Shown piece after piece: positions 32,448 through 52,453 of a stretch of DNA of 64,000 bases. Under the pieces are notes generated by a model. The model did no database searches. It saw nothing but the letters and a program-made list of their open reading frames with translations, and had not been told where the DNA came from. A program made the position numbers and the translations under genes. Source of the stretch: Candidatus Limnocylindrales bacterium (GTDB lineage: Bacteria; Chloroflexota; Limnocylindria; Limnocylindrales; CSP1-4); contig JBBSFD010000015.1 in assembly GCA_038239115.1 (NCBI GenBank), positions 1,544-65,543 of the forward strand. Reading direction: 5' to 3'. Within the stretch, counting starts at the first letter, position 1, and each line of letters begins with the position of its first letter.

Positions 32448-34057
32448 ACCCGGGCTGACTCGCGTCCGTGGCGGAGCGCACGGCCAGGAGTTGCCCCGGT
32501 GTGCGCCCCGCCGTCGACCACCACGGTCCCGTTGACGATGACCTGCTCGATGCCCTCGGGAAACTGGCGTGGCTCCTCGATCGTGGCCAGGCTCCGGATC
32601 CGGACCGGGTCGAACACGACCACGTCGGCTGCCAGGCCGTCGACCAGCCGGCCCCGGTCGGTCAACCCGAGCCGGGCCGCCGGGGCCGAGGTCATCTTAC
32701 GGACGGCCTCTTCGAGGCTGAGCAGCCCCTCCTCGCGTACGAACTCGCCCAGGATCCGGGGAAACGAACCATAGGTGCGCGGACTGGGCTTCGCCCCGAC
32801 GAACGTCGAGTCCGTCCCGACCATGCCCACCGGATGCTGGAAGAAGGGCGGCATCGTCGGCCGGTGCGGGCCTGGAGTGACCTCATTGAGGCGCAGGTCC
32901 TCGGCCAGCAGCAGGTCGCACACCAGGTCCACGGCCTCGGCCCCGGTCTCGGCCTGGATGGCGCCGAGCGTCCAGCCCTCCCAGCGGGCGTGCTCCTGCC
33001 GGGCGAAGTAGCCGACCCGCACGCCGGCCAGACCGCCGCTGCCGGCGAACAGCGTGCCCCGTTCGGCCAGCTCGCGCCGGATCCCGGCCCGGATGGCCGG
33101 GTCGGCCAGGCGTGCCTTGGTCAGTCCCGGACCGCCCTCCTGGACCCACGGCGGAATCAGGATCAGCAGGCGGGTGCTGGCCCACTCGGACGGGTACGAA
33201 TCGAAGGTCACGTCCTGGCCGAGGGCCCGGGCCACGTCGACCAGCTCGAGCATCGGTCCGGGCCCGCCCGGGAACGTGGCCCGGTGGTAGAAGTGGGTGA
33301 TGTGGGCCGGCGCGCCGCCCCGCCGGCCGATCTCGGTTGCCTCCCGGAACGGATCCAGGTAGCCGTCGCCGAGGGGGTAGCGGACGTGGGTGTGATAGAA
33401 GCCGCCGTGCCGGCCGGCCTCCTCGGTCAGGGCCGCCAGCTCGGCCGTCGTCGCGTACGAGCCGGGTGGATAGTCGAGGCCCGAGCTCAGTCCGAAGGCA
33501 CCCTCGGCCATCGCCTCGGCCAGCATCGAGCGCATCGAGGCAATCGCGCCCTCCCCGGCCGGGACGTCGTTCCAGCCAAGGGCGCCGATCCGCAGGACCG
33601 AGTTGCCCACGAGGTAGGCGATGTTGACGCTGACCTGCCGGTCGAACCGGGTCAGATAGGCGGCCACCGTGTCCCAGTCGTAGGCGATGTCGGGGTGGCC
33701 GTCCAGCCCGGCATTCAGCTCGACGAAGGCGGCCAGGTCGGCGGGGTCGTCGAACGGGGCGTACGAGTTGCCATCGACCCCGATCACCTCGGTCGTGACG
33801 CCCTGGCGGACCTTGGGCTCGTGGCGGGGATCGGCCAGGATCATCAGGCCGGAGTGGCTGTGCAGGTCGATGAAGCCGGGGGCGACCACCTTGTCGGTCG
33901 CGTCGATGGTCCGGCCGGCGTGGTCGGGCAGCGCCTGCCCGGCCTCGATCACTCTCAGCCGCTCGCCTTCGATCGCCAGGCTGCCCGGCCGGCCCGGTGC
34001 GCCCGTACCGTCGACGAGCGTCCCGCCGGTGATCAGGATGTCGACGGCGGCCGTCAT
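32444..34057 (-). CDS. N-acyl-D-amino-acid deacylase family amidohydrolase
   Basis: PGFIDLHSHS, QGVTTEV.G, GLSSGLDYPPG, PRTYGSFPR and AVRKMTSAPA motifs; ATGA-coupled to guaD. Confidence 0.88.
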   Translation of the reverse strand: MTAAVDILITGGTLVDGTGAPGRPGSLAIEGERLRVIEAGQALPDHAGRTIDATDKVVAPGFIDLHSHSGLMILADPRHEPKVRQGVTTEVIGVDGNSYAPFDDPADLAAFVELNAGLDGHPDIAYDWDTVAAYLTRFDRQVSVNIAYLVGNSVLRIGALGWNDVPAGEGAIASMRSMLAEAMAEGAFGLSSGLDYPPGSYATTAELAALTEEAGRHGGFYHTHVRYPLGDGYLDPFREATEIGRRGGAPAHITHFYHRATFPGGPGPMLELVDVARALGQDVTFDSYPSEWASTRLLILIPPWVQEGGPGLTKARLADPAIRAGIRRELAERGTLFAGSGGLAGVRVGYFARQEHARWEGWTLGAIQAETGAEAVDLVCDLLLAEDLRLNEVTPGPHRPTMPPFFQHPVGMVGTDSTFVGAKPSPRTYGSFPRILGEFVREEGLLSLEEAVRKMTSAPAARLGLTDRGRLVDGLAADVVVFDPVRIRSLATIEEPRQFPEGIEQVIVNGTVVVDGGAHTGATPGRALRHGRESARV

Positions 34058-35409
34058 CCGGGCGGGCCCTCGAGCCGTCGGCCGCGGACCCATGCCCCGC
34101 GGACCATGTCCGGGTGAGTCCGGAAGATGAGCTGGCTGAGGACGTCAGCCGGCCCGTCGGGCTCGAGGGCGGTCAAGGCGGCTGCCGGCGGCTCGGCCAG
34201 TGCGGTGTCGATCACGATCAGGTCGGCCTCCTTGCCCGCTTCGATCGAGCCGATCTCGCCCTCGAGGCCGAGACAGCGGGCCGCCTCGTAGGTGGCCTGG
34301 CGCAGCCAGCCCAGCGAATCGAGGATCGGTCGCTGATCACCGCCGGCCACCCGTAGTGCGTTCTGGACGTAGCCGCCGAAGCGCATCGCGCCGAAGATCG
34401 ACAGGTCGGGGCCGCCGGCAACGTCGGAGCCGAGGCCGACCGCGATGCCCGCCTCGAGGTAGCGGGCCAGGGGCATGATCCCCGAGGCCAGGAACAGGTT
34501 CGAGGCTGGACAATGGGCGAGCCGCGTGCCCGTCTCGGCGATCCGGGCCACCTCGCGCTCCGACAAGTGGATGGCGTGGGCCAGGATCGTCCGCGGCCCG
34601 AGGCCGCCCGCCTGGTCGTAGACGTCGAGGTAGTCGCGAGCCTCGGGTAAGAGCTCGGCCACCGCCGCGATCTCGTCCCGATCCTCGGCCAGGTGGGTCT
34701 GCCAGTAGGCTCCGGTGGACTTGGCCAGGGCGGCCGATTCGCGGAGCATCTCGGCCGAGCAGGCCACGGCGAAGCGGGGCGTGAAGGCGTAGCGCAGCCG
34801 GCCGCCGTCGCGCATGTGCCAGCGAGCGCAAAGATCGGCCGATTGGCGCAGCGACAGCTCGAGCAGCTCGGAGGGCCGGCGGGTGTCGTCGTAGGTCAGC
34901 CGGTCCATCATCACCTTGCCGATGATCGCCCGGATGCCGTGGGCCTCGGCCGCCCGGAAGGCCGCGTCCAGCGAGGGCTCGTACACCGCGCCGTACATCA
35001 TGGCGGTCGTCGTGCCGGCGGCGGCGAGGGCCCGGTACACGGCCGGCGCCACGACCTCGGCCACCGCCTCGGTGAAATCGCGCTCGAGCGGGAAGACATA
35101 CGCCTCGAGCCACTCGAGGAGGGGTGTCCCGAAACCCAGCCCGGCATGCGGGACCTGGGGCAGGTGGACGTGCAGGTCAATCAGGCCGGGCAGGATGAGC
35201 ATCGGCCGGAGGTCGATGACGGGGCGGGCGGCAGCGGCGCCCAAGCGCGAAGCCTGGGCCCCGTCGAAGGGCTCGACCGAGGCGATCCGGCCGGCCGCGT
35301 CCACGGTCAGCAGCCCGTCCGGCTCGTAGCGGCTGCCACCTGCGGCCAGCGGCGTCAGGATCCGGGCGCGCAGCGCGAACGGCGGCCGGTCGGGCAGGCT
35401 GGCAGGCAT
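34054..35409 (-). CDS. guaD: Guanine deaminase
   Basis: PGLIDLHVHLPQ, LLEWL..YVFPLE, TPRFAVACS, QTHLAE, HCPASNLFLASG and GSDVAGG motifs. Confidence 0.92.
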   Translation of the reverse strand: MPASLPDRPPFALRARILTPLAAGGSRYEPDGLLTVDAAGRIASVEPFDGAQASRLGAAAARPVIDLRPMLILPGLIDLHVHLPQVPHAGLGFGTPLLEWLEAYVFPLERDFTEAVAEVVAPAVYRALAAAGTTTAMMYGAVYEPSLDAAFRAAEAHGIRAIIGKVMMDRLTYDDTRRPSELLELSLRQSADLCARWHMRDGGRLRYAFTPRFAVACSAEMLRESAALAKSTGAYWQTHLAEDRDEIAAVAELLPEARDYLDVYDQAGGLGPRTILAHAIHLSEREVARIAETGTRLAHCPASNLFLASGIMPLARYLEAGIAVGLGSDVAGGPDLSIFGAMRFGGYVQNALRVAGGDQRPILDSLGWLRQATYEAARCLGLEGEIGSIEAGKEADLIVIDTALAEPPAAALTALEPDGPADVLSQLIFRTHPDMVRGAWVRGRRLEGPPG

Positions 35410-35430
35410 CGCGGCGATGCTACGCCACGC

Positions 35431-35460
35431 TTGACAGCCCCGCGTCACGGGTCCCATCGT
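35431..35460 (+). promoter_or_regulatory. Candidate sigma70 promoter of the xdh-uricase operon
   Basis: TTGACA (35431-35436), 18 nt, CATCGT (35455-35460); divergent from the guaD -10 box TAGCAT (35422-35417). Confidence 0.45.
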
Positions 35461-35485
35461 CAGGCGTCAGGATGAACTCACGAAC

Positions 35486-37776
35486 ATGACCCTCCGGGAG
35501 TCCCTCGGCCGCGCCGCTGCACCCGTCATCGTGCGGCCCGATGCCCCGACCAGGGGCCTGGCTACGCCCCGCGGGCCGCTCCGGCGCGAAGGTCCAGCCA
35601 AGCTCACCGGCACCGCCCTGTACACCGACGACCTGGTCTTCCCCGGGGCCTGGTACGGAGCCACGATCCGCTCGACCGAGGCCCACGCCCGGCTGCTCGG
35701 GATCGAGCTCGACCCAGCGTTCGACTGGTCGAAGGTGGTCGTCGTGACCGCCGCCGACATCCCCGGCCCGAACGTCGTGAACTCGATCCAGGACGACCAG
35801 CCGATCCTGGTCGCCGACGAGATCCGCCACCATGCCGAGCCGGTCGCCCTCGTGGCCGCTCCCGACCGGGGCCTCCTCGGCGAAGCCGTCGCCCGCGTCC
35901 GGATCCGGACCGAAGCGCTGCCGGCCGTCCTCGACCCGCTCCTGAGCGAGCACGCCTTCGCCCACTACGAGATCGAGTCGGGCGACATCGCCGCGGGCTT
36001 CGCCGAGGCCAGCCTGGTCGTCAACGGCGAGTACCGGGTCGGCCACCAGGAGCAGCTCTACATCGAGAACAACGCGATGATCGCCGTCCCGCGTGACGAT
36101 GGTGGCGTCGCCGTCCACGGCTCGCTCCAATGCCCCTACTACGTCCACAAGGCGCTCCGCCGGTCGCTCCTCCTGACCGACGCTCAGGCCCAGGTGATCC
36201 AGGCCGAGACAGGCGGCGGCTTCGGCGGCAAGGAGGAGTACCCCTCGATCCTGGCCCTCCACGCGGCGCTCCTGGCTCGCGCCTGCGAGCGGCCGGTCCG
36301 GATGATCTACGACCGCCACGAGGACATCGCGGCGACCACCAAGCGCCACCCGGCAATCGTCCGCTACCGGAGCGGCGTATCGGCCGATGGGCGCCTCGTC
36401 GCCCAGGACATCGAGATCGTCATGGACGGCGGGGCCTACTGCACGTTGAGCCCGGTTGTCCTGTCGCGGGGCACGCTCCATTCAGGTGGGCCGTACGCCT
36501 GCCCCAACGTCCGGATCCACTCGCGGGCGATGGCCACGAACACGCCGCCCAACGGCGCCTTCCGGGGCTTCGGCGCGCCCCAGACCGAGTTTGCGGCCGA
36601 GATGCAGGTCAATCGGATCGCCGAGGCGCTGGGCGAATCGCCGCTCGAGCTGCGCCGGCGCTGGCTGTACCGGCCGGGCGACGCGACACCGACCGGCCAG
36701 GTCCTGCGCGAGAGCGTGGCGGCCGAGGACGTCCTCAACCGGGGCGCCGAGGCGGCCGAGTTCGAACGGGTCCGGGCCCGGACGGCCCTGGATCGGGCGG
36801 GGCGGCAGGCCGGCGGACGGGCCCGCTCGGCCCACGGCATCGGCCTGGCCCTGGGCTGGCACGGTGCGGGCTTCACTGGCTCGGGCGAGGTCCACCTGGC
36901 TTCGCTAGCCTCGGTCGAGCTCGGCGCCGACGGGCGGATCCGGGTCCTGATCGGCTCGACCGAGATGGGCCAGGGGACGAAGACGATCTTCCCCCAGATG
37001 GCCGCCGAAGCACTGGGCGTCGGAATCGATGACGTCGAGCTGGCGCCGGTCGACACTGCCCTCGTCCCCGACAGCGGCCCGACGGTGGCTTCGCGGACCG
37101 CGATGGTCGTCGGCGGCCTCGTGATCGAAGCCTGCCAGCGCCTGCGGGCGGTGGTCGAAAGCCGCAGCGGCGACCGGAGCGTAGGCACGGGCGGCTCGTT
37201 CGCCGACGTCTACCGGGACGACGCGCGCGTGCACGGGGCGACCCGGATCGACCAGCACTTCGAGCCCTACCCCGGCGTCGACTTCGACGACACGACCTAC
37301 CGGGGCGACGCCTATCCCGCCTTCGGCTGGGCGTCGGCCGTGGCCGAGGTCGATGTCGACCTGGACACCGGCGAGGTCGCCGTTCGGAGCGTGGTCGCCG
37401 CAGATGACGTCGGCCGGGTCATCCACCCGGTCCTGGCCGAGGGCCAGGTCGAGGGCGGCACGCTCCAGGCCGTCGGCTACGCCACGATCGAGGAGATCAA
37501 GCTCATCGACGGCCGCTACCTGAACGACCGCATGGCGACCTACCTGATCCCAACGGCGCTCGACGCTCCGAGGATTGAGACGATCCTGGTCGAAGCCCCG
37601 TTCAGCGGCGCCCCGCACGGGGCCAAGGGCATCGGCGAGCTGCCCATGGACGTGGGCGCCCCGGCCGTGGTCGCGGCGATCCACGACGCGACTGGGGTTT
37701 GGATCCACGACCTGCCGGCCAGCCCGGAGCGGATCATCGCGGCGCTTATGGCAGCCGACGCACAACGGCCGCACGC

Positions 37777-37780
<4 letters not shown>
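35486..37780 (+). CDS. Xanthine dehydrogenase molybdopterin-binding subunit
   Basis: QEQLYIE, GGGFGGKE, KRHP, AFRGFGAPQ, EMGQG, GQVEGG and GAKGIGE motifs. Confidence 0.93.
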
Positions 37781-38297
<517 letters not shown>

Positions 38298-38301
<4 letters not shown>

Positions 38302-39152
38302 TCGAGCCGCCCGTCGTCTCGCCTGACCGCCTGGCCGATGCCTATGCCCTGCTGGCCGAGTCGAGCCATCGGCCGATCGCCGGCGGCACCGACGTGCTCG
38401 TCCAGATGACCGCCGGCAGCGGCCCCCCGCCCGAACGCCTGCTCGACCTGTGGCGGCTGGACGAGCTGCGCGGCATCGACCTCGACCATGATGCCCTGTC
38501 GTTCGGGGCCCTGACCACCTACACGGCGATCCGCCGTTCGAGCGTATGCCGCGACCTGCTGCCCGCCCTGGTCGAGGCGGCGGCCACGATCGGCGCCGCC
38601 CAGATCCAGAACCGGGGCACCCTCGGCGGGAACATTGCCAACGCCTCGCCGGCCGGCGACATGCTGCCCGTCTTGCTGGCCACCGATGCCTCGATCGTCG
38701 TCGGCTCGGTCCGCGGCGAACGGACGATCCCGGCGGCCGAGTTCTGGACCGGCTATCGGGCCACGGCCCTGGCCTCGGACGAGCTCGTCGTCAGGATCCG
38801 GATCCCGCTCGTGGCCGACCGCCAGGTCCGCTTCCGCAAGGTCGGCACCCGGCGGGCCCACGCGATCAGCAAGGTGGTCCTCGCCCTGAGCTGGGTGTCG
38901 CCGTCGCTCGAGGGGCCCTGGCAGGCCGTCCGGCTCGGCCTCGGCTCGGTCGCCGAGCGGCCGATTCGAGCCAGCGCGACTGAGGCTGTCCTGGAGGGCC
39001 AGCCGCCGATCAGCGACACCGCTGATAGGGCATTCGTCTCCCTTGCCGCCGAGATCAAGCCGATCGATGATGTCCGCTCGACGGCCGACTATCGCCGGGC
39101 GGTGGCCGCCCGGGTGCTCCATCGCCTGATCCGGGACGCCGGCGGCTGGTGA
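38298..39152 (+). CDS. Xanthine dehydrogenase FAD-binding subunit
   Basis: [26 protein letters not shown] and [12 protein letters not shown] motifs. Confidence 0.93.
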
Positions 39153-42001
39153 CGGACGAGTCGAAGCCCGAACGGGAGTCGAGATTGAGCGAACCGGGCC
39201 AGCCCGAGCCGCGGCCCTTCGAGCTCGGACCGAACCGCTACGGCAAGTCCGCGATCCGGCTGGTCAAGGTCCGCCGCGGGGCCGCCGGTACGCGCGTTCG
39301 TGACCTGACCGTCTCGATCTCGCTCGAGGGCGATTTCCAGGCGGCCCACCTGGCCGGCGACAACAGCGGGGTCGTGGCCACCGACACGATGAAGAACACG
39401 ACCTACGCCCTGGCCCACGAGCACCTGACCGGCGCCATCGAGAGCTTCGGCCTGGTCCTCGCCCGGCACTTCAGCGTCATGGCCCACGTCTCGAGCGCGA
39501 CTGTGTCGATCGAGGAGCACGGTTGGGAGGCGGTGCCTACCTCCGGCGGCCCGGCACCTGACGCATTCATGCGCGCGAGTGAGCTGACCCGCACCGCCGT
39601 GGTTCGGGCAGATCCGGCCGGCTTCACGATCGAGTCGGGCCTGCAGGACCTGACCCTGATGAAGACGGCCGGCTCGGCCTTCAGCGGCTTTCCCCGGGAC
39701 GAGTACACCACCCTGGCCGAGACCGACGATCGATTGATGGCCAGCCGCCTCACGATGAGCTGGCGCTACGGCTCGATCCCGGACGACTACGACGCGACCT
39801 TCGACGACGTCTGCCGGGTCCTGCTCGACCGCTTCGCGGGCCACCGCAGCCCGTCCGTCCAGGCCACGATCTGGATCCTGGGCCGGGCCGTCCTCGAGGC
39901 CCAGCCGACGATCGACGAGGTCCGGCTGGTCATGCCCAACCTCCATCACTGGCTGGTCGATCTGGAGCGCTTCGGGCTGACCAACGATCGCGAGATCTTC
40001 GTGGCCACCAGCGAGCCGTACGGCCTGATCGAGGCGACGGTCCGTCGGATCGACGTTTCGCCCGAAACAGAATCGGAGGATCGGCCCGAGCTGGTTGTTG
40101 CCGCAGCCGCCGTTGCCGCGGCGGTCGCCGTCGAGCCCAAGCCGGAGGTTGTGCCGGAACCGGAGCCTAAGCCCGAACCCGAACCAGAGCCCGTGGCGGT
40201 GGCGCCCGAGCTCGAGCCGGTGGCGGTCGCGCCCGAGCCCGAGCCGGTGGCGGTCACGCCCGAGCCCGAGCCGGTGGCGGTCGCGCCGGAGCCCGAACCC
40301 GAGCTCCTTGCGGTCGAGCCGGAGCCCGAGCCGATGGCCCCGTATCCGGAGCCCGAGCCTGACGCCGCCTTCGCGCTGGCCGTGGCCGCGGCTGCCGCCC
40401 GCTCCGTCGCTCCGGCCGCCCCGATCGCTGCCCCGACCGGGATCGAAGTCAAGGGTCGCGCCGTCCCCGGAATCGACACGATCCTGACGCCCGAGGCGCT
40501 CGAGTTCATCGCCGGCCTCGAGCGAACGTTCGGCGCCCGTCGGCACGAGCTGCTGGCTGCCCGCCGGCAGCGCCAGAAGGAGCTCGACCGGGGGATCATG
40601 CCCGACTTCCTGTCGAGCACGGCCGATGTTCGCCGCGGCTCTTGGACCGTGCCTTCTACGCCGCCCGACCTGGCCGATCGTCGCGTCGAGATCACCGGTC
40701 CGGCGGAGCCCAAGATGATGATCAACGCCCTGAATTCGGGCGCCCGCGTGTTCATGGCCGACCTCGAGGACTCGCTCTCGCCCACCTGGGCCAACGTGAT
40801 CGGCGGCCAGGCCGCGATCGCCGAGGCCGTCCGGCGGACCCTCACCTTCGAGAGCCCCGAGGGCAAGTCCTATCAGCTCAACGACAAGATCGCGACGCTG
40901 GTGGTCCGGCCGCGGGGCTGGCATCTCGACGAGCGCCACGTCCAGGTCGACAACGCCTCGATCTCGGCCTCACTGTTCGATTTCGGGCTCTTCGTCTTCC
41001 ACAACGCCCGCGAACAGGTCAGCCGCGGGACAGCCCCCTATGTCTACCTGCCCAAGCTCGAATCGCACCGCGAGGCGCGACTCTGGAACGACGTCTTCGT
41101 GTATGCCCAGGAGGCCCTTGGCCTGCCCGTCGGCACGATCCGGGCGACCGTGCTGATCGAGACGATCCTTGCCGCGTTCGAGATGGACGAGATCCTGTAC
41201 GAGCTGCGCGACCACGCCGCCGGCCTGAATGCCGGCCGCTGGGACTACCTGTTCAGCTGCATCAAGAAATTCCGCTCGAACTCGCACCTCGTCCTGCCCG
41301 ATCGGTCAGAGCTGACGATGACCGTCCCGTTCATGCGCGCCTACACCGAGCTGCTCGTCCAGACCTGCCACCGGCGGGGCGCGCACGCGATCGGCGGGAT
41401 GGCTGCGTTCATCCCGTCACGGCGGGATCGCGAGGTCAACGAGACGGCGATGAGCCGGGTCCGCAACGACAAGGAGCGCGAGTCGCGCGACGGCTTCGAC
41501 GGCACCTGGGTCGCCCACCCCGACCTCGTCCCGCTGGCGACCGAGGTGTTCAACGGGGTCCTCGGTTCGCGGCCCGACCAGAAGGGCATGACCCGGCCTG
41601 AGGTCAAGGTCACCGCCGCCCAGCTGCTCGACCTGGTTGTGGAGGGCGGCACGATCACCGAAGCCGGGATCCGGACCAACGTCTCGGTCGCGCTGCAGTA
41701 CCTCGACTCGTGGCTGCGCGGCAACGGTGCCGCCGCCATCAACAACCTGATGGAAGACGCCGCGACCGCCGAGATCTGCCGGTCCCAGCTGTGGCAGTGG
41801 CGGGCCACCCGGACCCGGCTCGCCGACGGCCGCGTGTTCGACGGCGACCTGTACAAGAAGATTCGCCACGAGGAGCTCGAGCGGTTGGGCGGCACGGCCT
41901 CGGGCCGCCTGGGCGACGCGGTCACGATCCTCGACCAGCTCGTCTTCTCGGACGGCTTCGCCGAGTTCCTTACGCTCGAGGCCTACCGCCTCCTCGACTG
42001 A
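39149..42001 (+). CDS. pucL-aceB: Fusion of cofactor-independent urate oxidase (N-terminal), Pro/Glu-rich linker and malate synthase A (C-terminal)
   Basis: Uricase motifs [48 protein letters not shown] and PYGLIEA. Malate synthase motifs [46 protein letters not shown] and MEDAATAEI. One 950-codon ORF. Confidence 0.9.
40178..40285 (+). repeat. Four tandem 27-nt coding repeats (PEPEPVAVA) in the fusion linker
   Basis: ccc gar cYM gag ccS gtg gcg gtS Rcg x4, flanked by degenerate PEPEP units (about 40135-40365). Confidence 0.9.
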
Positions 42002-42046
42002 CAGGCGTGTCGGCGCGGCGTTCCGCCGCCGCCCCAGGGTCTCTCT

Positions 42047-42216
42047 GCGGTTTACCGCCACTACCGGTACGCGACGGGGTTCTCGGGCATCGGACCTCGT
42101 CTGGTCGCCGATCTACCGCCACTAATCTTGAAATCGCCCGGAGCGCGCCCGAACGCGCCCGGATCGGGCGGATTCGAGGTCCAAAGGCCGTCGGCTAAGC
42201 GTAGTGGCGGTATCGC
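42047..42216. repeat. Three REP-like units (TACCGCCACTA twice, plus one inverted copy)
   Basis: TACCGCCACTA at 42053-42063 and 42114-42124; reverse complement at 42202-42212; adjacent hairpin GCGGT-TT-ACCGC at 42047-42058. Confidence 0.6.
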
Positions 42217-42263
42217 GACCGTTGATCCTTCGGACTCGCGACCGCCGACGCTAGACTGCGGCC

Positions 42264-42599
42264 ATGGACGACCTCGACGGACCGATCGCCGCGCCCGACA
42301 ACCACAAGGTGATCTTCGAGAACGAGCTCGTGCGCGTGCTCGAGATCACGATCCCGGTGGGTACCACCGCGCCCATCCACACGCACTTGACGCCGACGTT
42401 GCTCTACCACGTCTCAGGCAACCACTCGGTCCGCCGCGGCGAGGATGGCGCCGTCCTTCGCGACACGCGCGCGGATCCCAGCTTCCGGCCCGAGCGCGTC
42501 ACGTTCCAGGGCCCGACTCCTGAGCACACACTCGAGAACACCGGCTCGGAGGACATCCACGTGATCGGCGTCGAGCTCAAGGACCACGCACCGGCCTGA
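42264..42599 (+). CDS. Small cupin-domain protein
   Basis: APDNHKVIFENELVRVLE, PIHTH and HTLENTG motifs; leaderless-type TAGACT-6nt-ATG. Confidence 0.8.
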   Translation: MDDLDGPIAAPDNHKVIFENELVRVLEITIPVGTTAPIHTHLTPTLLYHVSGNHSVRRGEDGAVLRDTRADPSFRPERVTFQGPTPEHTLENTGSEDIHVIGVELKDHAPA

Positions 42600-42648
42600 G
42601 CGACGGCACCCTCCCTCGTGGCCTGAGCATAACTTCGGGTTGCCCGAG

Positions 42649-42681
42649 TCTCAGACTCCTCTCACAGGGCCCGGATAGGGT
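42649..42681 (+). promoter_or_regulatory. Direct-repeat operator-like motif (TCTCAG-N5-TCTCAC) plus -10 box TAGGGT
   Basis: 11-bp-period hexamer repeat ending 10 nt before the -10 box; same architecture at 47233-47265. Confidence 0.55.
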
Positions 42682-42688
42682 CCTGGAG

Positions 42689-42759
42689 ATGCAATCTCAG
42701 TCCGCGCCGAGATGACCCGGCCGGGAGCTTACCGGCCCACTCGGCATCAGCGCGAATGA
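42689..42759 (+). other. Two chained candidate uORFs (MQSQSAPR 42689-42715; MTRPGAYRPTRHQRE 42712-42759)
   Basis: The first ATG lies 7 nt after the -10 box. Each stop overlaps the next start as ATGA, ending at murT. Confidence 0.4.
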
Positions 42760-44138
42760 GGCCTCGCCTCGAGATCGCCCTGATCGCGGCCCGGGCAGCC
42801 GGCACGCTCGCCCGCCGATTGGGCCAGGGCAACGGTACGTCGCTGCCCGGCGTCTTGGCCCGGCGGATCGATCCATCTGTGTTGAGCAGCCTCGTTCGTG
42901 AGGCGGGGATGCCCGCGGTGGTGATCACTGGCAGCAACGGCAAGACGACCACCGGACGACTGATCACTGCGCTGCTCAAGGCCGAAGGCATCGACGCGCG
43001 GAGCAACGCTGCCGGGGCGAATCTCGTGCAGGGCGTCACCACCCTCGCCGTGAGCAATGCGGACCTGCACGGGCGCCTGCCTCCAGGAATCCTGGTAGCC
43101 GAGGTCGATGAGGGTGCCATGCGCCAGGTGGTGCCTGAGCTAGCGCCACGGATCGTCCTTGTGGTCAATCTGTTCCGCGATCAGCTGGATCGCTATGGCG
43201 AGCTCTATGCTGTTTCGGACGCCATCGAATCGATCGCACGTGATCTTCCGTCGGACGCTGCCTGGGTGGTCAATGCCGACGACCCGCTCGTCGCCTCGTT
43301 GGCGCCGGATCGAGTGGGCCGGCGCGTCACCTTCGGCCTCGACCTGGACTGCTCCACCGATCGCCTTACCCGCGCGTCCGACTCCATTCGGTGCCCGCGC
43401 TGCCGGTCGGACCTCGAATATGAGCACGTCTACCTCAGTCACCTCGGCTCGTATCGATGTCCTGGCTGTGGCCTTCGCCGGCCGCGTTTGGATGTAGCCG
43501 TGACGGCACTTCGCGTGGGTGCTTCGGACACGAGTCTCACGGTGCGGATTGGATCCTCGGAGCTCGTGCTGCGGGTTCCCCAGCCAGGCGTGCACATCGC
43601 CTACGACGTCGCGGCTGCGCTGGCGGTCCTGGTCGGCCTGGGGATCTCCCCGGTGCATGCCGCCGAAGCCTTGGCCGCCGTCAAACCGGCATTCGGACGC
43701 CTCGAGACAGCCGAAGTTGGGGACCGCCGAATCGTCCTCGGCTTCGTCAAGAACCCGAGCTCGTACAACACGACGCTGCGGGCCCTGGGCCTTGCCGGCG
43801 AGCCGCGCCAGCTGCTGGTCGCGGCAAGCAATACGAAGGTCGATGGCGAGGACTTTGCCTGGTTGTGGGATGTCGACTTCGAGTCCGCCGCGCCACGCTT
43901 CGAGCACGTGACGGTCACCGGGACGCGAGCCGACGATCTAGCCAATCGGTTGAAGTACGCCGGCGTCGACCCAGGCTTGATCAGCGTGATTGGCCCGGCG
44001 AATCGGGCACTCGACGCCGCGTTTGCCGCGATCGCGCCCGGCGGACGGCTTACCATCCTGGCCGGCTACACGCCCACGATGGAGCTGCGCCGGCTGATGA
44101 ACCAGCGCGGTTGGGTCGGGCCCCTGCGCGATGCGTGA
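42756..44138 (+). CDS. murT: Lipid II isoglutaminyl synthase subunit MurT
   Basis: GTSLPG, ITGSNGKTTT, GANL, EVDE, NLFRDQLDRYGE, Zn finger CPRC...CPGC, AFGR.E, KNP and DGEDFAWLWDVDFE motifs. Confidence 0.93.
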   Translation: MRPRLEIALIAARAAGTLARRLGQGNGTSLPGVLARRIDPSVLSSLVREAGMPAVVITGSNGKTTTGRLITALLKAEGIDARSNAAGANLVQGVTTLAVSNADLHGRLPPGILVAEVDEGAMRQVVPELAPRIVLVVNLFRDQLDRYGELYAVSDAIESIARDLPSDAAWVVNADDPLVASLAPDRVGRRVTFGLDLDCSTDRLTRASDSIRCPRCRSDLEYEHVYLSHLGSYRCPGCGLRRPRLDVAVTALRVGASDTSLTVRIGSSELVLRVPQPGVHIAYDVAAALAVLVGLGISPVHAAEALAAVKPAFGRLETAEVGDRRIVLGFVKNPSSYNTTLRALGLAGEPRQLLVAASNTKVDGEDFAWLWDVDFESAAPRFEHVTVTGTRADDLANRLKYAGVDPGLISVIGPANRALDAAFAAIAPGGRLTILAGYTPTMELRRLMNQRGWVGPLRDA

Positions 44139-44952
44139 CGGCCCGGTCGACGCCAAGACTCGCGACCGCGTCCCCTTGCTCCGGATCGCCCACCTCTACC
44201 CGTCGCTGCTCAACGTGGCAGGCGACAGCGGCAACGTGATCGTCATCGAGCGCCGGGCGGGTTGGCGCGGGATCGCCACCGAGATCGTGCCGGTCGAGAT
44301 CGGAGTTTCAGTCGACCTCGCATCGTTCGACCTGATCTTCCTGCAGGGCGGACAGGACATCGAGATGGCCGTGGCCGCGCGGGACCTGCAGGGCAGGGCT
44401 GCGACCCTTCGCGAGGCGGCCGGCCGGGGGGTCGTGATCTTCGCCGTCTGCGCTGGCCTCCAGCTCCTGGGCCACCGCTACATTCCGCAGCGCGGCCCTG
44501 CGATCGAGGGGATCGGCCTGCTCGATCTCGAAACCCGGGGCGGCAATGACCGGTTCATGCAGCACGCGGCCTGCCAGGTCGGCTTCGGCGAAGGGACGGA
44601 GACGATCGTCGGTTTCGAGAACCATTCCGGCCTGACCGAGCTCGGGCCGGACGTGCGCCCGTTCGGAACGGTCATTGCCGGGGCAGGCAACAACGGCAGG
44701 GACGGGACCGAGGGAGCCCGCCGAGACAATATCTACGCCACATACCTTCACGGCCCGGTGCTGCCCAAGAATCCGTGGCTTGCCGACTACCTCATCCGGA
44801 TCGCGCTGGAGCGACGGATCGGCGGCCGAGTCTCGCTGCCCGATCTCGACGATTCGCTCGAACAGAGCGCGCACGCCCTCGCCCTCGAGGTGGCGCTGCG
44901 GAACCGCGGACGGCGGACGGCCCTCGAGCCGGCCCGCCTGGGCCGGGCATGA
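44131..44952 (+). CDS. gatD: Type 1 glutamine amidotransferase GatD
   Basis: HLYP.LLN..GDSGN, GGQD, AVCAGLQLLG, GFENHSG and TYLHGPVLPKNP motifs. Confidence 0.93.
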   Translation: MRDGPVDAKTRDRVPLLRIAHLYPSLLNVAGDSGNVIVIERRAGWRGIATEIVPVEIGVSVDLASFDLIFLQGGQDIEMAVAARDLQGRAATLREAAGRGVVIFAVCAGLQLLGHRYIPQRGPAIEGIGLLDLETRGGNDRFMQHAACQVGFGEGTETIVGFENHSGLTELGPDVRPFGTVIAGAGNNGRDGTEGARRDNIYATYLHGPVLPKNPWLADYLIRIALERRIGGRVSLPDLDDSLEQSAHALALEVALRNRGRRTALEPARLGRA

Positions 44953-49700: not shown

Positions 49701-51119
49701 CTATTCGCTCAGGCGCCGTTCGACGAACTGGCCGAAGCCGCGCTGGCCAACGAAGATGCTGTCACGGATGACAGCCCGGCCGCGGACGTAGACCGAGCGG
49801 ACCGCGCCGCTGACGGCTAGTCCCTCGAACGCGGTGTAGTCCGAAGTGTGATGGAGGTCGGCGGCGCGCAAGGTGCGCCGTGCGGCGGGATCGAACAGGA
49901 CCAGATCGGCGTCGCGGCCCAGTTCGAGGACGCCTTTCGAGCCGAGGCCAAAGAGCCGCGCTGGCGCGGCGGCGAGGACCTCCACCAGCCGCTCGGCGCT
50001 GATCCGACCCGTCGCGACCCCCTCCGACCAGGCCACCGCCAGGAGCGTCTCGATCCCCGGCGCGCCGTTGCTGATCTTGTCGAACGGGACGCCGGTGACC
50101 CGTTTCTCGACGGCCACCCGGTCCGGAACGTGGTCCGTGGCGACGAGGTCGAGCGTGCCGTCCTCCAGCCCCGACCACATCGCAGCGCGGTCGGCGGCCG
50201 ATCGAAGGGGCGGCGAGATCACGACCTTGGCCACCTCGGCGTCGTCGGGATTGAGATAGCGGGCGTCGGTCAAGGCCAGGTAGTGCGGGCAGGTCTCGGC
50301 CGAGGCTCGAACACCGCGCGCTTTCGCCGCCCGAACTGCCTCGAGCCCGCCCTCCGATGAAAGGTGGACGACGTGGACCGGGGCGTCTGCCTCCTCGGCG
50401 AAGCGCATCGCCCGGGCTGTCGCGATCGCCTCGGCCCGAGCCGGTCGCGAGCTGGCGTGGAAGCGTGGCGCCGTGTCGCCGCGGGCCAGAGCCGCCGCGA
50501 CCTCGGTGTCGATGATGACCGGATCCTCGCAGTGGACCTCGAGCCGGCCGCCTCGCCGGCCCATGGTCCGGATGGCCTCGCGTAGGCGGGCATCGTCGAG
50601 CCGGAAGTCGAAGACCATGAATGCCTTCGCTGTCGGCACGCCGCCATCGACGATCGCCGGCAGCTCGCCGACCGGATTGTTCATCCGGCCGCTGATCGCC
50701 AGGCTGACGGCATAGTCGACGGCCGCGTCCGCCTGGGTGACCGCCCGCCATTCGGCCAGGCCGCGCACGAGCGAGCGCTCGGCCGCCGGCGAGGAGCCGG
50801 TGCCCGGGTTGTTGAACGCCAGGAACGTGGTCGTGCCGCCGAACGCCGCCGCGACCGAATCCTGGAAGAATCGATCGGGCTCGGCGTCACTCGCGACGCG
50901 GGTATGGGTGTGCGCGTCGACCATGCCGGGCAGGACCAGCAGGCCGGTCGCATCGACAACCTCGCGAGCCTGCCCCGCCTGCCCGCCCAGATCCGGCTCG
51001 ATGGCGCTGATCCGGCCGCCGCTGACCGCCAGATCGGCTCGCCTCGAGCCGCCGGGAGTGACGATCGTGCCGCCGCGGACGAGGAGCTCGACCGCCGGGG
51101 CGAGCTCGATCTCGGTCAC
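49701..51119 (-). CDS. Cyclic amidohydrolase (dihydropyrimidinase/hydantoinase family; allantoinase by context)
   Basis: PGMVDAHTH, AAAFGGTTT, KAFM, VHCED, VHLS, ETCPHYL, SPPLR and ATDH motifs. Confidence 0.88.
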   Translation of the reverse strand: MTEIELAPAVELLVRGGTIVTPGGSRRADLAVSGGRISAIEPDLGGQAGQAREVVDATGLLVLPGMVDAHTHTRVASDAEPDRFFQDSVAAAFGGTTTFLAFNNPGTGSSPAAERSLVRGLAEWRAVTQADAAVDYAVSLAISGRMNNPVGELPAIVDGGVPTAKAFMVFDFRLDDARLREAIRTMGRRGGRLEVHCEDPVIIDTEVAAALARGDTAPRFHASSRPARAEAIATARAMRFAEEADAPVHVVHLSSEGGLEAVRAAKARGVRASAETCPHYLALTDARYLNPDDAEVAKVVISPPLRSAADRAAMWSGLEDGTLDLVATDHVPDRVAVEKRVTGVPFDKISNGAPGIETLLAVAWSEGVATGRISAERLVEVLAAAPARLFGLGSKGVLELGRDADLVLFDPAARRTLRAADLHHTSDYTAFEGLAVSGAVRSVYVRGRAVIRDSIFVGQRGFGQFVERRLSE

Positions 51120-51123
51120 CCGA

Positions 51124-51558
51124 TCAGTCGACCTCGCGGATCGAGATCGCCTGGGCGCCCTGCCACAGGCAGCGCCGGCCAACCTCGCGCAGCCGATCCG
51201 CCCAGCCCAGGTCAGTCGGGCCTTCCGGTTCGATCGAGGCGAAGTGGTTAGCGGCCAGCTGGCCGACCTTCGAGCTCGTCGTGCAGGCGCCGTAGGGGAA
51301 GAAGATCTCGCACTCGCTGATCCCGCCGGGATACATCGCGAGCTGGCCCGGCGCGGGGTGCGAGGTGTGGTTCTCGTAGTCGATCCCTGGGCGCAGGTCG
51401 CCGTACGGGATCCAGGTCGACTCGCCACTCCAGCGACAGTGGATCAGCGACGCTTCGATCGGCAGCATCCGCCGGATCGCCTCGATCGTCTTGGGCGCGG
51501 CGGGCTCCCAGCGGGCGCTAAAGTGGAGGTCGCCGACGACGATCTGGAGTCGAGCCAT
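51124..51558 (-). CDS. DUF3830 family protein (cyclophilin-like fold)
   Basis: APKT, IHCRWSGES, ENHTSHPAPG..YPGGISECEI..PYG and GQLAANHF motifs. Confidence 0.85.
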   Translation of the reverse strand: MARLQIVVGDLHFSARWEPAAPKTIEAIRRMLPIEASLIHCRWSGESTWIPYGDLRPGIDYENHTSHPAPGQLAMYPGGISECEIFFPYGACTTSSKVGQLAANHFASIEPEGPTDLGWADRLREVGRRCLWQGAQAISIREVD

Positions 51559-51572
51559 ACGCGGAGGATAGC

Positions 51573-51905
51573 GTGGCCAATCGGGCGCCGACGATCTCCA
51601 GCCACGTCCTGGACACGAGCCGCGGAGCGCCGGCGGTCGGGGTTCGGATCGACCTTTCGGTCGTTGGCGTTGACGGTCTTGAGACCGCGGTTGGGTCGTC
51701 CGTGACCGATGCCGATGGCCGGGTCGCGGACCTGCTCGGGGCCCCGCTGGTTGCCGGGCTCTACCGGCTGCGGTTCTCGGTCGGGGAGCGAAGCCCGTTC
51801 TTCGTGGGACTGGCCGTGGACATCCGCGTCGACGATGTTGGCCGGAGCTACCACGTCCCGCTGTTGCTCAGCCCGTTCGGGTTGTCGACCTACCTCGGAA
51901 GCTGA
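51573..51905 (+). CDS. uraH: 5-hydroxyisourate hydrolase (transthyretin-like)
   Basis: ISSHVLDT..G.PA.G, TDADGR and YHVPLLLSPFG.STY.GS motifs. Confidence 0.9.
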   Translation: MANRAPTISSHVLDTSRGAPAVGVRIDLSVVGVDGLETAVGSSVTDADGRVADLLGAPLVAGLYRLRFSVGERSPFFVGLAVDIRVDDVGRSYHVPLLLSPFGLSTYLGS

Positions 51906-51910
51906 CTTCG

Positions 51911-52453
51911 TTGGCCGAGCCGGCGCCCATGCCGCCGATCGAGATCCTTGACCGGCTTCCTGCCGACGACTTTGCCGCGGCGGTCGCACCTCTGTTCGAA
52001 GGCGCGCCGTCCTTCGTCGGTCGATTGGCCCAAGCCCGACCGTTCGGTTCCTATGCTGACCTCTGGCCGCAGGCATTGGCGATTGCCCTGGCCATGCCCG
52101 AAGCCGACCAGCTCGAGCTCATCAACGCCCATCCGCGCCTCGGGGCGGCGCCGGCGAGCGTGTCGGCGCTGTCGTTCCATGAGCAGGGCTATGACCGGGC
52201 CGAGGCTGAAGCAGCCGAGTCGGCCCGTGTCGCGGCCGAGCTGGCCCGCCTCAACGATGCCTACGAGGGGCGCTTCGGCTTCCGCTACTGCGTCTTCGTC
52301 AACGGCCGCTCGCGCACCAAACTGCTGCCGCACATCGCTGCGGCCCTCGATGCCGACCGCGCCTCCGAGATCACCCGTGCCCTGACCGACGTCATCGCGA
52401 TCGCCGAGGACCGGTCCCGGACCCTCGGCGCTCTTGACGGACCGCGGAGCTAG
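51911..52453 (+). CDS. uraD: OHCU decarboxylase
   Basis: LFE, ARPF.S, LINAHPRLG, S.HEQ, LNDAYE.RFGF and IAEDR motifs. Start is 51911 or 51929. Confidence 0.9.
   Translation: MAEPAPMPPIEILDRLPADDFAAAVAPLFEGAPSFVGRLAQARPFGSYADLWPQALAIALAMPEADQLELINAHPRLGAAPASVSALSFHEQGYDRAEAEAAESARVAAELARLNDAYEGRFGFRYCVFVNGRSRTKLLPHIAAALDADRASEITRALTDVIAIAEDRSRTLGALDGPRS

Follow-up and report, generated by a model that had tools for sequence, protein, structure and literature searches.

Why a urate oxidase and a malate synthase (MS), enzymes that act far apart in metabolism, should share a single reading frame is the question raised by a 950-codon ORF in the 64,000-nt stretch of DNA analysed here (the window; Table 1). 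The initial annotation described this frame as carrying a complete urate oxidase and a complete malate synthase A, and the ORF list, the translation, Pfam and NCBIfam agree with that description; the domain coordinates were correct to within a few codons, and every uricase and MS motif that had been named was found in the translation and maps to characterised active-site residues. No internal stop interrupts the translated 39149..42001 frame. The start codon is ambiguous, as the GTG at 39149 shares bases with the stop codon of the XDH FAD-subunit gene upstream, and an alternative in-frame TTG is located at 39185 with GGGAG 5' of it; both codons lie 5' of the uricase domain. An AF2 model of the whole fusion protein is poor (mean pLDDT 47.2). 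Judged at the level of sequence, the fusion is genuine, a single ORF that evolution has maintained, and it probably encodes a tethered bifunctional enzyme without substrate channelling, as the last gene of an XDH operon in soil Limnocylindria-type Chloroflexota.

Table 1. Features of the uricase-malate synthase locus and of neighbouring purine-pathway genes (positions in the window).
Feature	Position	Strand	Remarks
guanine deaminase	34054..35457	-	divergent from the XDH operon
XDH-type molybdopterin subunit	35486..37780	+	first gene of the operon
XDH-type [2Fe-2S] subunit	37699..38301	+	ORF as listed; real start probably further downstream
XDH-type FAD subunit	38109..39152	+	TGA stop overlaps GTG of the fusion (GTGA)
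uricase-linker-malate synthase A fusion ORF	39149..42001	+	950 aa, predicted ~104 kDa, pI ~5.0
urate oxidase half	39218..40048	+	aa 24-300, two T-fold uricase repeats
linker	40049..40438	+	aa 301-430, 130 aa; 82% P+E+A+V, net charge -24
27-nt tandem repeat in linker	40178..40296	+	PEPEPVAVA unit, 4.4 copies, 90% matches
in-frame ATG (Met396) in linker	40334..40336	+	GGAG upstream; possible, non-conserved internal start giving a 61-kDa MS
malate synthase A half	40439..42001	+	aa 431-950 plus stop codon; N-terminal, TIM-barrel and C-terminal domains
dihydropyrimidinase/allantoinase-like cyclic amidohydrolase	49701..51428	-	allantoinase candidate
5-hydroxyisourate hydrolase	51573..51905	+	
OHCU decarboxylase	51911..52453	+	separate gene

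The N-terminal half is matched by Uricase PF01014 in two stretches (best aa 162-295; Pfam) and reaches 301 bits with the NCBIfam equivalog TIGR03383 urate_oxi (aa 26-300), far above the cut-off of 168.4, while its top PDB match is the uricase 7f2v (242-243 bits). Alignment with 2iba and inspection of the motif blocks revealed that the catalytic equivalents are all kept, namely K33, T78, D79, R183, Q238, N264, and H266; in A. flavus uricase, active-site roles are reported for Lys10, Thr57, Asp58, Arg176, Gln228, Asn254, and His256 (PMC7792999). Because the catalytic residues are conserved, we read this half, which has the tandem repeats, the score and the active-site residues of factor-independent urate oxidases, as a cofactor-independent urate oxidase that would convert XDH-made urate to 5-hydroxyisourate.

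In the C-terminal half, Pfam finds MS_N (aa 433-492), MS_TIM-barrel (583-828), and MS_C (836-948) in this order, malate synthase A being defined here by PF20656, PF01274, PF20659, and TIGR01344. The NCBIfam equivalog TIGR01344 malate_syn_A scores 737.9 bits over aa 445-949 (cut-off 594.5), and the PDB chains 3cux and 3cuz are matched with 625.9 and 527.2 bits, respectively. The equivalents of Arg166, Glu250, Arg276, Asp278, Trp365, and Asp447 are retained in the 3cuz alignment, and the aligned columns RPRGW, IETI, GRWDY, and MEDAATAE are identical. Arg166, Glu250, Asp278, and Asp447 we take to be the catalytic Arg/Asp and the Mg2+ ligands of E. coli MSA, numbers that fit the chain index plus one. 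MSA and MSG are described as having in common a conserved Arg as well as a catalytic Asp (PMC3832036). With its catalytic residues conserved, and with the domain order and score of malate synthase A, the C-terminal half is therefore interpreted as such an enzyme, which would condense glyoxylate with acetyl-CoA to malate. No other MS was found in the source genome (G000, 92.65% complete).

Between the two halves lies a strongly acidic segment in which Lys and Arg are nearly absent and for which no secondary structure is predicted over aa 301-407. The linkers of different species range from 68 to 216 aa and cannot be aligned with one another; even against the 96-97% identical relative P0002, the copy number of the 27-nt repeat differs, in frame. 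The linker is probably a disordered or extended acidic tether.

The architecture recurs. Fused proteins make up 13 clean clusters, with identities of 59-96%, that originate from JGI, ENA, and NCBI assemblies. Within g1, a single Limnocylindria-type Chloroflexota genus, the locus is present in 14 genomes (G000 plus 13 of 15 others), and in 10 of them a single frame runs across the junction from uricase through the linker into MS; the remaining four loci are co-linear, and their frame switches also occur within conserved domains. An MS-domain tree of 56 rows places all 19 fused rows in one clade with an SH-aLRT of 100. Two rows of "free" MS inside this clade come from contigs of 1608 and 1773 nt.

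A comparison of fused and split genes among relatives, suggested by the initial annotation, gave fused genes in g1 and, in sister genera, split genes that are translationally coupled in the XDH operon. At six sister-genus loci (G227, G170, G041, G008, G191, and G140), the stop codon of uox and the start codon of aceB, which belong to different frames, share bases or are separated by 1-4 nt, with the junction signatures TGAcATG, TGATG, GTGA, TGAgGTG, GTGATG, and TGAcgccATG. No PE-rich extension was found on the unfused MS of relatives. The picture is that of a Rosetta-stone-type fusion, with separate genes adjacent on the same strand in relatives and monophyletic fused forms; by this comparison, the fusion had a single origin, in one genus, from a translationally coupled uox-aceB pair. 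As sister genera keep the two genes separate and coupled, the comparison indicates that the fusion arose by stop-codon loss and repeat-driven linker insertion: the stop codon of an ancestral pair with overlapping stop and start was lost once, in the g1 ancestor, and the junction subsequently expanded via repeat slippage into linkers that differ in each species. The family offers a dated series of the birth of a fusion, from stop/start overlap through stop loss to a disordered linker that grows by means of repeats. Where two genes overlap, losing the stop codon between them can be neutral, and the fusion may be either adaptive or merely tolerated.

The divergent guanine deaminase gene scores 362.9 bits with TIGR02967, below the cut-off of 375.4, and 351.9 bits with NF006679 (cut-off 351). 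The operon setting is conserved, with three layouts across the family: XDH FeS-FAD-fusion in g1, XDH FAD-OHCUD-Uox-MS in the g4 type, and XDH FAD-MS in the g63 type; in several relatives the allantoinase candidate follows immediately 3' of the fusion or of MS. Searches of G000 found no allantoicase (the same search matched 2 of 121 family genomes), no AllC-type amidohydrolase, and no urease alpha subunit, and the sole ureidoglycolate lyase (UGL) candidate in this genome is a weak PF04115 match (52.7 bits) in an unrelated gene context. This gap from allantoate to glyoxylate in G000 hints at unknown ureide enzymes in Chloroflexota. Since the pathway between both activities is incomplete in G000, the idea that purine-derived glyoxylate feeds MS is a premise drawn from gene order. 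No isocitrate lyase was found in G000, nor an isocitrate lyase domain in the fusion protein; the fused congener G152 possesses a full-length isocitrate lyase, and the MS half is therefore not purine-specific across the genus.

Two congeners, G374 and G399, have kept the fusion with a degraded uricase half. The fused uricase is their only uricase copy, its Pfam scores are weakened, and catalytic residues are lost, as is also the case in proteins P0012 and P0013; searches of both genomes found no XDH ortholog, no OHCU decarboxylase, and no 5-hydroxyisourate (HIU) hydrolase. The degraded half is still in frame, including a deletion of approximately 16 aa in G399 that is itself in frame. According to rough pairwise NG86 values (dS 0.5-0.75, GC3 ~0.9), dN/dS is ~0.4 for this half, and the constraint on MS is the same as elsewhere (omega 0.17-0.18 vs 0.19). 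The intact frame together with the unchanged MS constraint speaks for a dependence of MS expression on the long ORF. These two species represent a natural experiment in which one half is catalytically dead and the fusion is kept, making the retention of partners as scaffolds testable.

Could the single frame have been produced by a sequencing or assembly error, through an erased stop codon or a frame shift between adjacent genes? G000 is a metagenome-assembled draft of 155 contigs, the linker is GC-rich and repetitive, the singleton proteins P0016 and P0130 resemble fusions created by frameshift or truncation, and four g1 genomes show frame switches. However, the in-frame architecture with species-specific linkers occurs in 10 g1 genomes and 13 clusters from three data sources, and a simple error could not create a 390-nt in-frame spacer that has no counterpart in unfused relatives. 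A 2998-nt Logan contig of run X1 moreover covers 39149-41200 and bridges the linker with 0 differences, although this run may be the source sample, so that the contig represents a second assembler working on probably the same, non-independent reads. An artefact is thus extremely improbable, effectively refuted by the recurrence across g1 genomes and protein clusters. The possibility that two proteins come from one ORF is less easily dismissed, but we regard it as rather unlikely. Here a separate MS would arise either through initiation inside the linker (in G000, at ATG 40334) or because the linker is cut by proteolysis, and the cell would effectively contain free uricase and free MS, as in relatives. 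The ATG is in frame, 37 codons ahead of the MS domain and with GGAG 5-16 nt upstream, and would yield a 61.3-kDa product; in six of nine g1 linkers, one or more in-frame starts are accompanied by an SD-like motif, and cleavage in vivo is conceivable for a linker that is long and disordered. GGAG is by nature frequent in PE-coding DNA, each linker holding 2-13 SD-like motifs. On the other hand, the candidate starts are not conserved in position, three of the nine linkers (G332, G454, and G399) lack any in-frame start that is paired with an SD-like motif, and ribosomes entering at the uricase start reach 41999 without meeting a stop. The absence of frameshifts and stops from the catalytically stripped uricase of G374 and G399 is likewise expected if MS needs the upstream frame, and unexpected otherwise.

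A further alternative concerns the activity of the C-terminal half, which might be a UGL, or a bifunctional UGL/MS, modelled on the animal MS-like enzyme, and would then supply the final purine-breakdown step that is missing from G000. Metazoan MS-like UGL is reported to have the MS fold, to be dedicated to purine catabolism, and to co-evolve with uricase and allantoicase; the MS-like clade is assigned UGL function, and a bifunctional MS/UGL ancestor has been proposed (PMC10120013). The absence of allantoicase, AllC, and urease alpha from the G000 searches, the weak PF04115 candidate in its unrelated context, and the placement of MS within the purine operon in each of the three family layouts would suit this idea. 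The two proteins are alike as MS-fold proteins tied to purine catabolism, yet the animal enzyme carries Arg276Ile and Trp365Met (E. coli MSA numbering), has lost the acetyl-CoA site, and has a 2-aa insertion at the site interface (PMC10120013), whereas the fusion is MS-type at both positions (R in GRWDY, W in DGTWVAHP) and also retains the Arg166 and Asp447 equivalents. Its score above the equivalog cut-off for MS A, which likewise argues against loss of the acetyl-CoA site, and its 626-bit match to the solved MS chain 3cux point in the same direction, and the MS genes of bacterial and fungal purine clusters are described as genuine MS (PMC10120013). We therefore consider a UGL role very unlikely.

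For the tethered bifunctional enzyme that we favour, both activities would act independently, and MS would be produced within the long polypeptide and not from its own start, so that the fusion would set a 1:1 synthesis of uricase and MS activities. Glyoxylate would reach MS as the C2 end product of ureide breakdown and, in some congeners, also from isocitrate lyase. The initial annotation had rightly called the two enzymes non-consecutive in purine-to-glyoxylate-to-malate metabolism: they are set apart by four or five steps with genes of their own, HIU hydrolase, OHCU decarboxylase, the allantoinase candidate, and the enzymes leading from allantoate to glyoxylate being separate proteins, and direct channelling is implausible for this reason. 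The active sites of uricase form only on oligomerisation, so that several MS units would gather on one particle. Uricase is described as a tetramer with active sites at the protomer interfaces (PMC7792999) and MS A as monomeric (PMC3832036), and on this basis one may imagine the coupling scaffold of the initial annotation, a uricase tetramer displaying four malate synthases; any kinetic or detoxifying benefit would be speculative. On a further reading, the four malate synthases on their long acidic arms would make up a multivalent particle, or a condensate, in which the consumption of glyoxylate is concentrated. We find this scaffold doubtful, though conceivable; G374 and G399 would then keep a constrained, in-frame uricase domain because it serves as the scaffold. 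Urate oxidase and malate synthase are both reported to accumulate in the peroxisomal cores of Ustilago (PMC11842775), of which such a particle would be a bacterial counterpart.

A full-text literature search found no paper describing a uricase-malate synthase architecture, in keeping with the initial annotation, whose author knew of no described fusion of this kind. The combination thus appears to be undescribed, albeit as a modest variation on known enzyme fusions. It had also been claimed that the usual partner of uricase is OHCU decarboxylase, and the long uricase fusions that we found do carry this enzyme: the PDB matches of the uricase half include chains that bear the name "Uric acid degradation bifunctional protein PucL", and the OHCUD-uricase proteins P0123 and P0124 were also recovered. 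PucL of Bacillus is likewise a natural fusion of urate oxidase with a second purine-catabolic enzyme, but its OHCU decarboxylase is N-terminal to uricase and acts two steps after it, whereas in the present fusion the partner is a C-terminal malate synthase that acts after the whole ureide pathway and is joined by a long low-complexity linker. A PucL-type bifunctional uricase was rejected for this protein, which has no PF09349, the OHCU decarboxylase being encoded separately. In the isocitrate lyase-malate synthase fusion, MS is reportedly joined to the enzyme that starts its glyoxylate supply; that fusion is eukaryotic, and the partner catalyses the immediately preceding step. Pro-rich interdomain spacers occur in TonB (the Glu-Pro/Lys-Pro region) and in the E2 chains of 2-oxoacid dehydrogenases, where the linkers are rich in Ala and Pro. 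These are similarly low in complexity, presumably extended, and placed between folded domains, whereas the linker of the fusion is strongly acidic, hypervariable between species, and joins enzymes that do not exchange substrates.

Allantoin synthase, in which plants, diatoms, and certain bacteria join HIU hydrolase to OHCU decarboxylase, is also a purine-catabolism fusion and is interpreted as a case of co-localisation and fixed stoichiometry and not of channelling (PMC13751858); it combines consecutive steps with unstable intermediates and arose repeatedly, in contrast to the non-consecutive steps and the single origin, in one genus, of the uricase-MS fusion. MS genes have been linked to purine degradation as glyoxylate consumers, namely yeast DAL7 and bacterial glcB (PMC10120013, PMC13751858), and the MS of this bacterial family likewise sits in the XDH operon; MS is a separate gene in those clusters, whereas here it is covalently joined to uricase. 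That MS is connected with purine catabolism was known before, and the fusion adds a covalent form. Together, the fusion and the MS genes in XDH operons provide independent bacterial "Rosetta-stone" support for MS as the enzyme that salvages carbon at the end of purine degradation, a view argued recently from co-evolution in eukaryotes (PMC10120013). For uricase engineers, a soluble uricase with a long acidic Pro-rich tail may be of interest.

The uricase-malate synthase fusion is a single 950-aa ORF with a GTG start in the ORF listing of the window; its translation contains no internal stop, and the G+C content around the locus is ~70%. Both halves exceed the cut-offs of their NCBIfam equivalog models, and a spacer of 130 residues separates them, so that the initial annotation had described the fusion and its coordinates correctly. 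The predicted product has a mass of 104.0 kDa and a pI of 4.99. Alignment of the uricase half to solved uricases, with 2iba as reference (residue number equal to the chain index minus 1), places K33, T78, D79, R183, Q238, N264, and H266 at Lys10, Thr57, Asp58, Arg176, Gln228, Asn254, and His256, respectively. The malate synthase (MS) half was compared with 3cuz and is identical to it at the four columns that, in E. coli MS A numbering (which fits the chain index plus 1), we take to be Arg166, Glu250, Asp278, and Asp447. Arg276 and Trp365 are identical as well; the animal malate-synthase-like ureidoglycolate lyase has Ile and Met at these positions instead (PMC10120013), and the domain is therefore of the MS type. 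On the uricase side, Thr57 and Asn254 are described to hold the catalytic water and the peroxo hole, Lys10 to act as the dyad partner of Thr57 via a hydrogen bond, and Thr57, Asp58, Arg176, and Gln228 to bind the ligand (PMC7792999).

Coordinates of the fusion, its parts and neighboring features (window positions unless stated otherwise)
Feature	Position	Strand	Basis or remark
Large GH25 (lysozyme-type) + fibronectin-III protein	29772-32447	+	Upstream of the guanine deaminase-XDH block in G000
Guanine deaminase	34054-35457	-	Divergent, upstream of the XDH operon
XDH-type Mo subunit	35486-37780		Operon upstream of the fusion; Pfam and NCBIfam
Uricase-MS fusion	39149-42001	+	GTG start
Uricase PF01014	Two stretches, N-terminal half of fusion		Pfam
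Urate oxidase TIGR03383	aa 26-300 of fusion		NCBIfam equivalog, 301 bits (cut-off 168.4)
Linker	40049-40438 (aa 301-430)	+
27-nt tandem repeat	40178-40296		Encodes part of the linker
MS_N	aa 433-492 of fusion		Pfam
Malate synthase A TIGR01344	aa 445-949 of fusion		NCBIfam equivalog, 737.9 bits (cut-off 594.5)
MS_TIM-barrel	aa 583-828 of fusion		Pfam
MS_C	aa 836-948 of fusion		Pfam
11-mer TACCGCCACTA	42053-42063, 42114-42124, 42202-42212	+, +, - (inverted)	Exact copies
orf111	42264-42599	+	Just downstream of the fusion
MurT/GatD-like pair	42756-44952	+	Between the fusion and the remaining purine genes
Hydantoinase/allantoinase-like amidohydrolase	49701-51428	-
HIU hydrolase	51573-51905
OHCU decarboxylase	51911-52453
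PF04115 ureidoglycolate-lyase candidate	Contig C14:16751-17215		Between a P450 and an aldolase, not on the fusion contig

The linker extends from EATVRR, the last uricase motif (ending at aa 300), to GIEVKG, the first MS motif (from aa 431). In G000, the source genome of the window, it consists of 82% Pro/Glu/Ala/Val with a net charge of -24, and the tandem repeat that encodes part of it comprises 4.4 copies with 90% matches. Across the genus (g1), the fusion linkers are 68-216 aa long, with 77-88% Pro/Glu/Ala/Val, net charges of -10 to -35, and 0-5 Lys and Arg residues; those of different species are not alignable with each other, and each linker carries its own set of internal repeats. When the G000 linker is compared with that of P0002, a related protein that is 96-97% identical overall, the only differences are frame-preserving indels (13 and 2 aa) inside the repeat region. 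Together, these linker features point to repeat slippage that is still under way, with a filter on frame and composition. A genome-wide habit of forming PE-rich tracts was considered and rejected, as just five other tracts are present in a six-frame translation of G000; the linker type is not unique to the fusion within this genome, but rare. These other PE-rich or (EP)n tracts lie in long open frames on contigs C2, C5, and C18, for instance in a 780-aa frame (C2) and a 1876-aa frame (C18).

A whole-fusion search of 5.8 billion clustered proteins returned the fused proteins P0002-P0014 (720-952 aa) as top matches. They derive from JGI, ENA, and NCBI assemblies, some on contigs of up to 2.1 Mb, and their named sources are 'Candidatus Limnocylindrales'. 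Searching with the uricase region (candidates of 522-1663 aa) identified 23 long uricase-containing proteins; this search reaches only proteins sharing 5-residue words with the uricase, and fusions from distant lineages could escape it. Clean uricase-MS clusters, each at least 59% identical to the G000 uricase, account for 13 of the 23, while the singleton 'fusions' P0016 and P0130 look truncated or frameshifted and were not counted as such. The remaining eight comprise P0129 and P0131, long proteins with uricase as the sole Pfam domain listed, and uricase joined to other partners: OHCU decarboxylase (P0123 and, from Georgenia, P0124), HIU hydrolase and OHCU decarboxylase (P0125), the FAD subunit of xanthine dehydrogenase (XDH; P0126 and P0127), and an amidohydrolase (P0128). 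Most architectures of the P0123-P0128 type rest on singletons, and read-through may account for some of them; in locus L007 (genome G050), one open frame spans both OHCU decarboxylase and uricase.

At class level, uricase was detected in 193 of 301 sampled genomes, and among the rows listed, uricase open frames of ~975 aa were seen only in G000 and its congener G152. Uricase frames of 500-670 aa from the same search were rejected as partial fusions: the uricase terminates at a stop after EATxRR, and their length reflects upstream read-through in high-GC DNA. In a family search (401 genomes), 13 of the 15 other g1 genomes match the fusion locus. The comparison of fused versus split genes among relatives, which the initial annotation had proposed, revealed that ten g1 genomes (G000, G332, G435, G362, G454, G426, G374, G152, G399, and G347) encode uricase, linker, and MS in a single frame, and that uricase and MS are separate genes in sister genera. 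Four further congeners of low completeness and few contigs (G386, G417, G444, and G473) keep the co-linear order with frame switches, some inside conserved domains, which we read as assembly indel noise. The class, family, and isocitrate lyase tallies include genomes flagged unpublished, on which no specific claim depends. As regards the source assembly, a 2998-nt Logan contig of sequencing run X1 covers 39149-41200 with 0 differences; X1 may be the source sample, and its contig a second assembler's view only. Logan contigs of runs X2-X4 are short pieces of 90-99% likeness, mainly from conserved MS segments, and none extends across the junction.

All 19 fused rows group together in a single clade (SH-aLRT 100) in a quick maximum-likelihood tree (IQ-TREE) built from 56 MS-domain rows. 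Two 'free' MS rows within this clade, P0017 and P0018, lie on contigs 1608 and 1773 nt long and probably represent truncated fusion genes. The tree omits G374 (an EISGP motif variant), P0011, P0014, P0015, and P0016 (partial or frame-shifted), as well as G347, G386, G417, G444, G473, and L027 (G341). In six sister-genus loci, the uricase end and the MS start lie within a few bases of each other in different frames, namely TGAcATG (G227), TGATG (G170), GTGA (G041), TGAgGTG (G008), GTGATG (G191), and TGAcgccATG (G140), and judging from these junctions the two genes are a classic translationally coupled pair. The unfused MS proteins have short, ordinary N-termini without a PE-rich extension, and fusion in g1 therefore needed the loss of a stop codon plus ~200-650 nt of new in-frame insert. 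On sequence grounds, the g1 fusion arose once, from a coupled gene pair.

The initial annotation knew of no described uricase-AceB fusion, and our full-text literature search likewise found no title or abstract describing one. In the portions of a 2026 review of uric-acid catabolic enzymes that bear on this point, the fusions covered are HIUase-OHCUD fusions only, and malate synthase appears solely as DAL7 (PMC13751858); the word 'fusion' is absent from PMC10120013. Public records of fused sequences carry the automatic names 'malate synthase' and 'urate oxidase, partial'. The uricase-MS fusion is a bifunctional purine-catabolic fusion enzyme, which is a known kind and no new principle; as a Rosetta-stone case it is well supported, its linker is unusual, and the subclade in which one domain is degraded is informative.

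The fusion is the final gene of a tightly packed operon that encodes the XDH-type Mo subunit, the [2Fe-2S] subunit, and the FAD subunit upstream of it, with the TGA stop of the FAD gene overlapping the GTG start of the fusion. Layouts across the family were obtained by tblastn of the G000 purine-locus proteins against fetched relative loci. Members of g1 share the order XDH FeS-FAD-fusion, after which comes orf111, a conserved ORF of 111 aa; the hydantoinase-like gene often lies a short way downstream in convergent orientation. The g4-type layout reads XDH FAD-OHCUD-uricase-MS, MS directly follows XDH FAD with no uricase between in g63-type loci (L026 in G324, L028 in G356) and in L030 (G521), and g9-type loci have the order HIUase-OHCUD-uricase with MS 8-15 kb off. 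MS thus belongs regularly to the family's purine-oxidation neighborhood, which matches its published link to purine catabolism through DAL7 of yeast and glcB within bacterial purine operons (PMC10120013; PMC13751858) and the report that MS co-evolved with Uox and allantoicase (PMC10120013). In L026, L028, and L030, the hydantoinase-like gene sits just downstream of XDH FAD-MS.

In G000 (92.65% complete), the fusion carries the sole MS found, and no isocitrate lyase was found. We considered that MS might be purine-only owing to this absence, but the idea was rejected genus-wide: 16 of the 151 genomes sampled from the family have a full-length isocitrate lyase, among them G152, a congener with the fusion, and the MS half therefore also serves the glyoxylate shunt in some species. 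A model search for allantoicase gave no hit in G000, and none of the 14 named genomes supplied a positive control for it; at family level the model then matched 2 of 121 genomes, which shows that it works, and 0 of 4 g1 genomes. Searches of G000 for an AllC-type allantoate amidohydrolase and the urease alpha subunit were also negative, and its only PF04115 ureidoglycolate-lyase candidate scores a weak 52.7 bits, under all NCBIfam equivalog cut-offs. The steps from allantoate to glyoxylate are thus without assigned enzymes in G000, which weakens detailed pathway claims and leaves room for novel enzymes. As a lead only, orf111 is a candidate for such a ureide step. Its identity across five g1 loci is 60-86%; Pfam and NCBIfam gave no match and PDB sequences no meaningful one, and the protein Atlas groups it with very high confidence among small 'cupin family' clusters. 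Further candidates for the allantoate-to-glyoxylate steps are an amidohydrolase at 32444-34093 (-) and the PF04115 protein of contig C14.

Taken at the level of sequence, the fusion combines a single frame, two complete enzyme domains with intact active sites, operon membership, and a hypervariable acidic linker. Both halves would be expected to be active, and in G000 and most congeners the uricase half probably functions in the urate pathway. The linker is predicted to be disordered or extended from its composition and from the lack of secondary structure over aa 301-407, the only feature used from an AlphaFold2 model of the whole fusion (12-sequence alignment; mean pLDDT 47.2, pTM 0.34) that is too poor for domain docking or fold search. 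Uricase is a ~137 kDa tetramer with ligand sites between two protomers (PMC7792999), and MS A is normally monomeric (PMC3832036); if the uricase half tetramerises like characterised uricases, four MS units would be gathered. The gain, if any, would presumably lie in fixed stoichiometry and co-localisation, not in channelling, an argument also made for HIUase-OHCUD fusions (PMC13751858). The data are equally consistent with a fusion that arose neutrally and then became entrenched.

Within the genus, a natural experiment is offered by the fused sequences P0012, P0013, G374, and G399, which carry changes in uricase motifs that are invariant in all other fused and unfused sequences compared. YGK (Lys10) is YGT in all four, and ATDT (Thr57) is changed to TADT, TSEA, PMDT, and ASDT, respectively. 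FPRDE (Arg176) is retained in P0012, reads VPGDE in P0013 and VPGAE in G374, and is lost from G399 with an in-frame deletion of the segment; PNLHHW (Asn254, His256) reads PNIHHW in P0012, where both residues are kept, and PDLHHW, PKLHHW, and PSQDHL in the other three. The fused uricase is the only uricase copy in G374 and G399, with Pfam scores of 81/35 and 70/44 bits compared with ~118/62-68 in G152, G362, and G332. An ortholog of the XDH Mo subunit (88-89% identity in G152, G362, and G332) is absent from these two genomes, where the best matches are 28-31% identical paralogs. OHCU decarboxylase and HIU hydrolase, both carried by the same 12 of 16 g1 genomes, were not found in either. The GH25-fn3 gene lies directly upstream of the fusion in G374, suggesting that the guanine deaminase-XDH block was deleted there.

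The long fusion ORF is nevertheless intact in G374 and G399. Pairwise NG86 omega values (G374 included), which are rough given a dS of 0.5-0.75 and strong codon bias, are 0.186 (21 intact-intact pairs), 0.178 (14 degraded-intact pairs), and 0.168 (G374-G399) for the MS half, which is as constrained in these genomes as elsewhere, and 0.288, 0.403, and 0.402 for the uricase half; the degraded uricase half is therefore relaxed, though far from neutral. We infer that MS is expressed via the long frame, because otherwise nothing would keep a dead N-terminal half from breaking, and the continued constraint on that half hints at a non-catalytic role without proving it. MS could alternatively be translated from a start within the linker. 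In-frame GTG or ATG codons are present in every linker because Val is common there; their positions are not conserved, and three of nine linkers (G332, G454, and G399) have no in-frame start with an SD-like motif 5-16 nt upstream. The ATG at 40334 in G000 is preceded by GGAG, and some separate MS of 61.3 kDa may be produced from it beside the long-frame product.

The three copies of TACCGCCACTA in G000 fall within 160 nt between the fusion stop and orf111. No further copy occurs in the window, 0.15 are expected, and three copies were reached in 0 of 100 shuffles; the repeats, which are absent from the relatives' loci, may be an operator. A scan of 35000-43000 was uninformative, with 0 promoter-like sites and 3 terminator-like sites versus 1.5 expected. 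Both members of the MurT/GatD-like pair (lipid II isoglutaminyl synthase subunits) score under the equivalog cut-offs, and in several congeners without this insert, the hydantoinase-like gene comes straight after the fusion.
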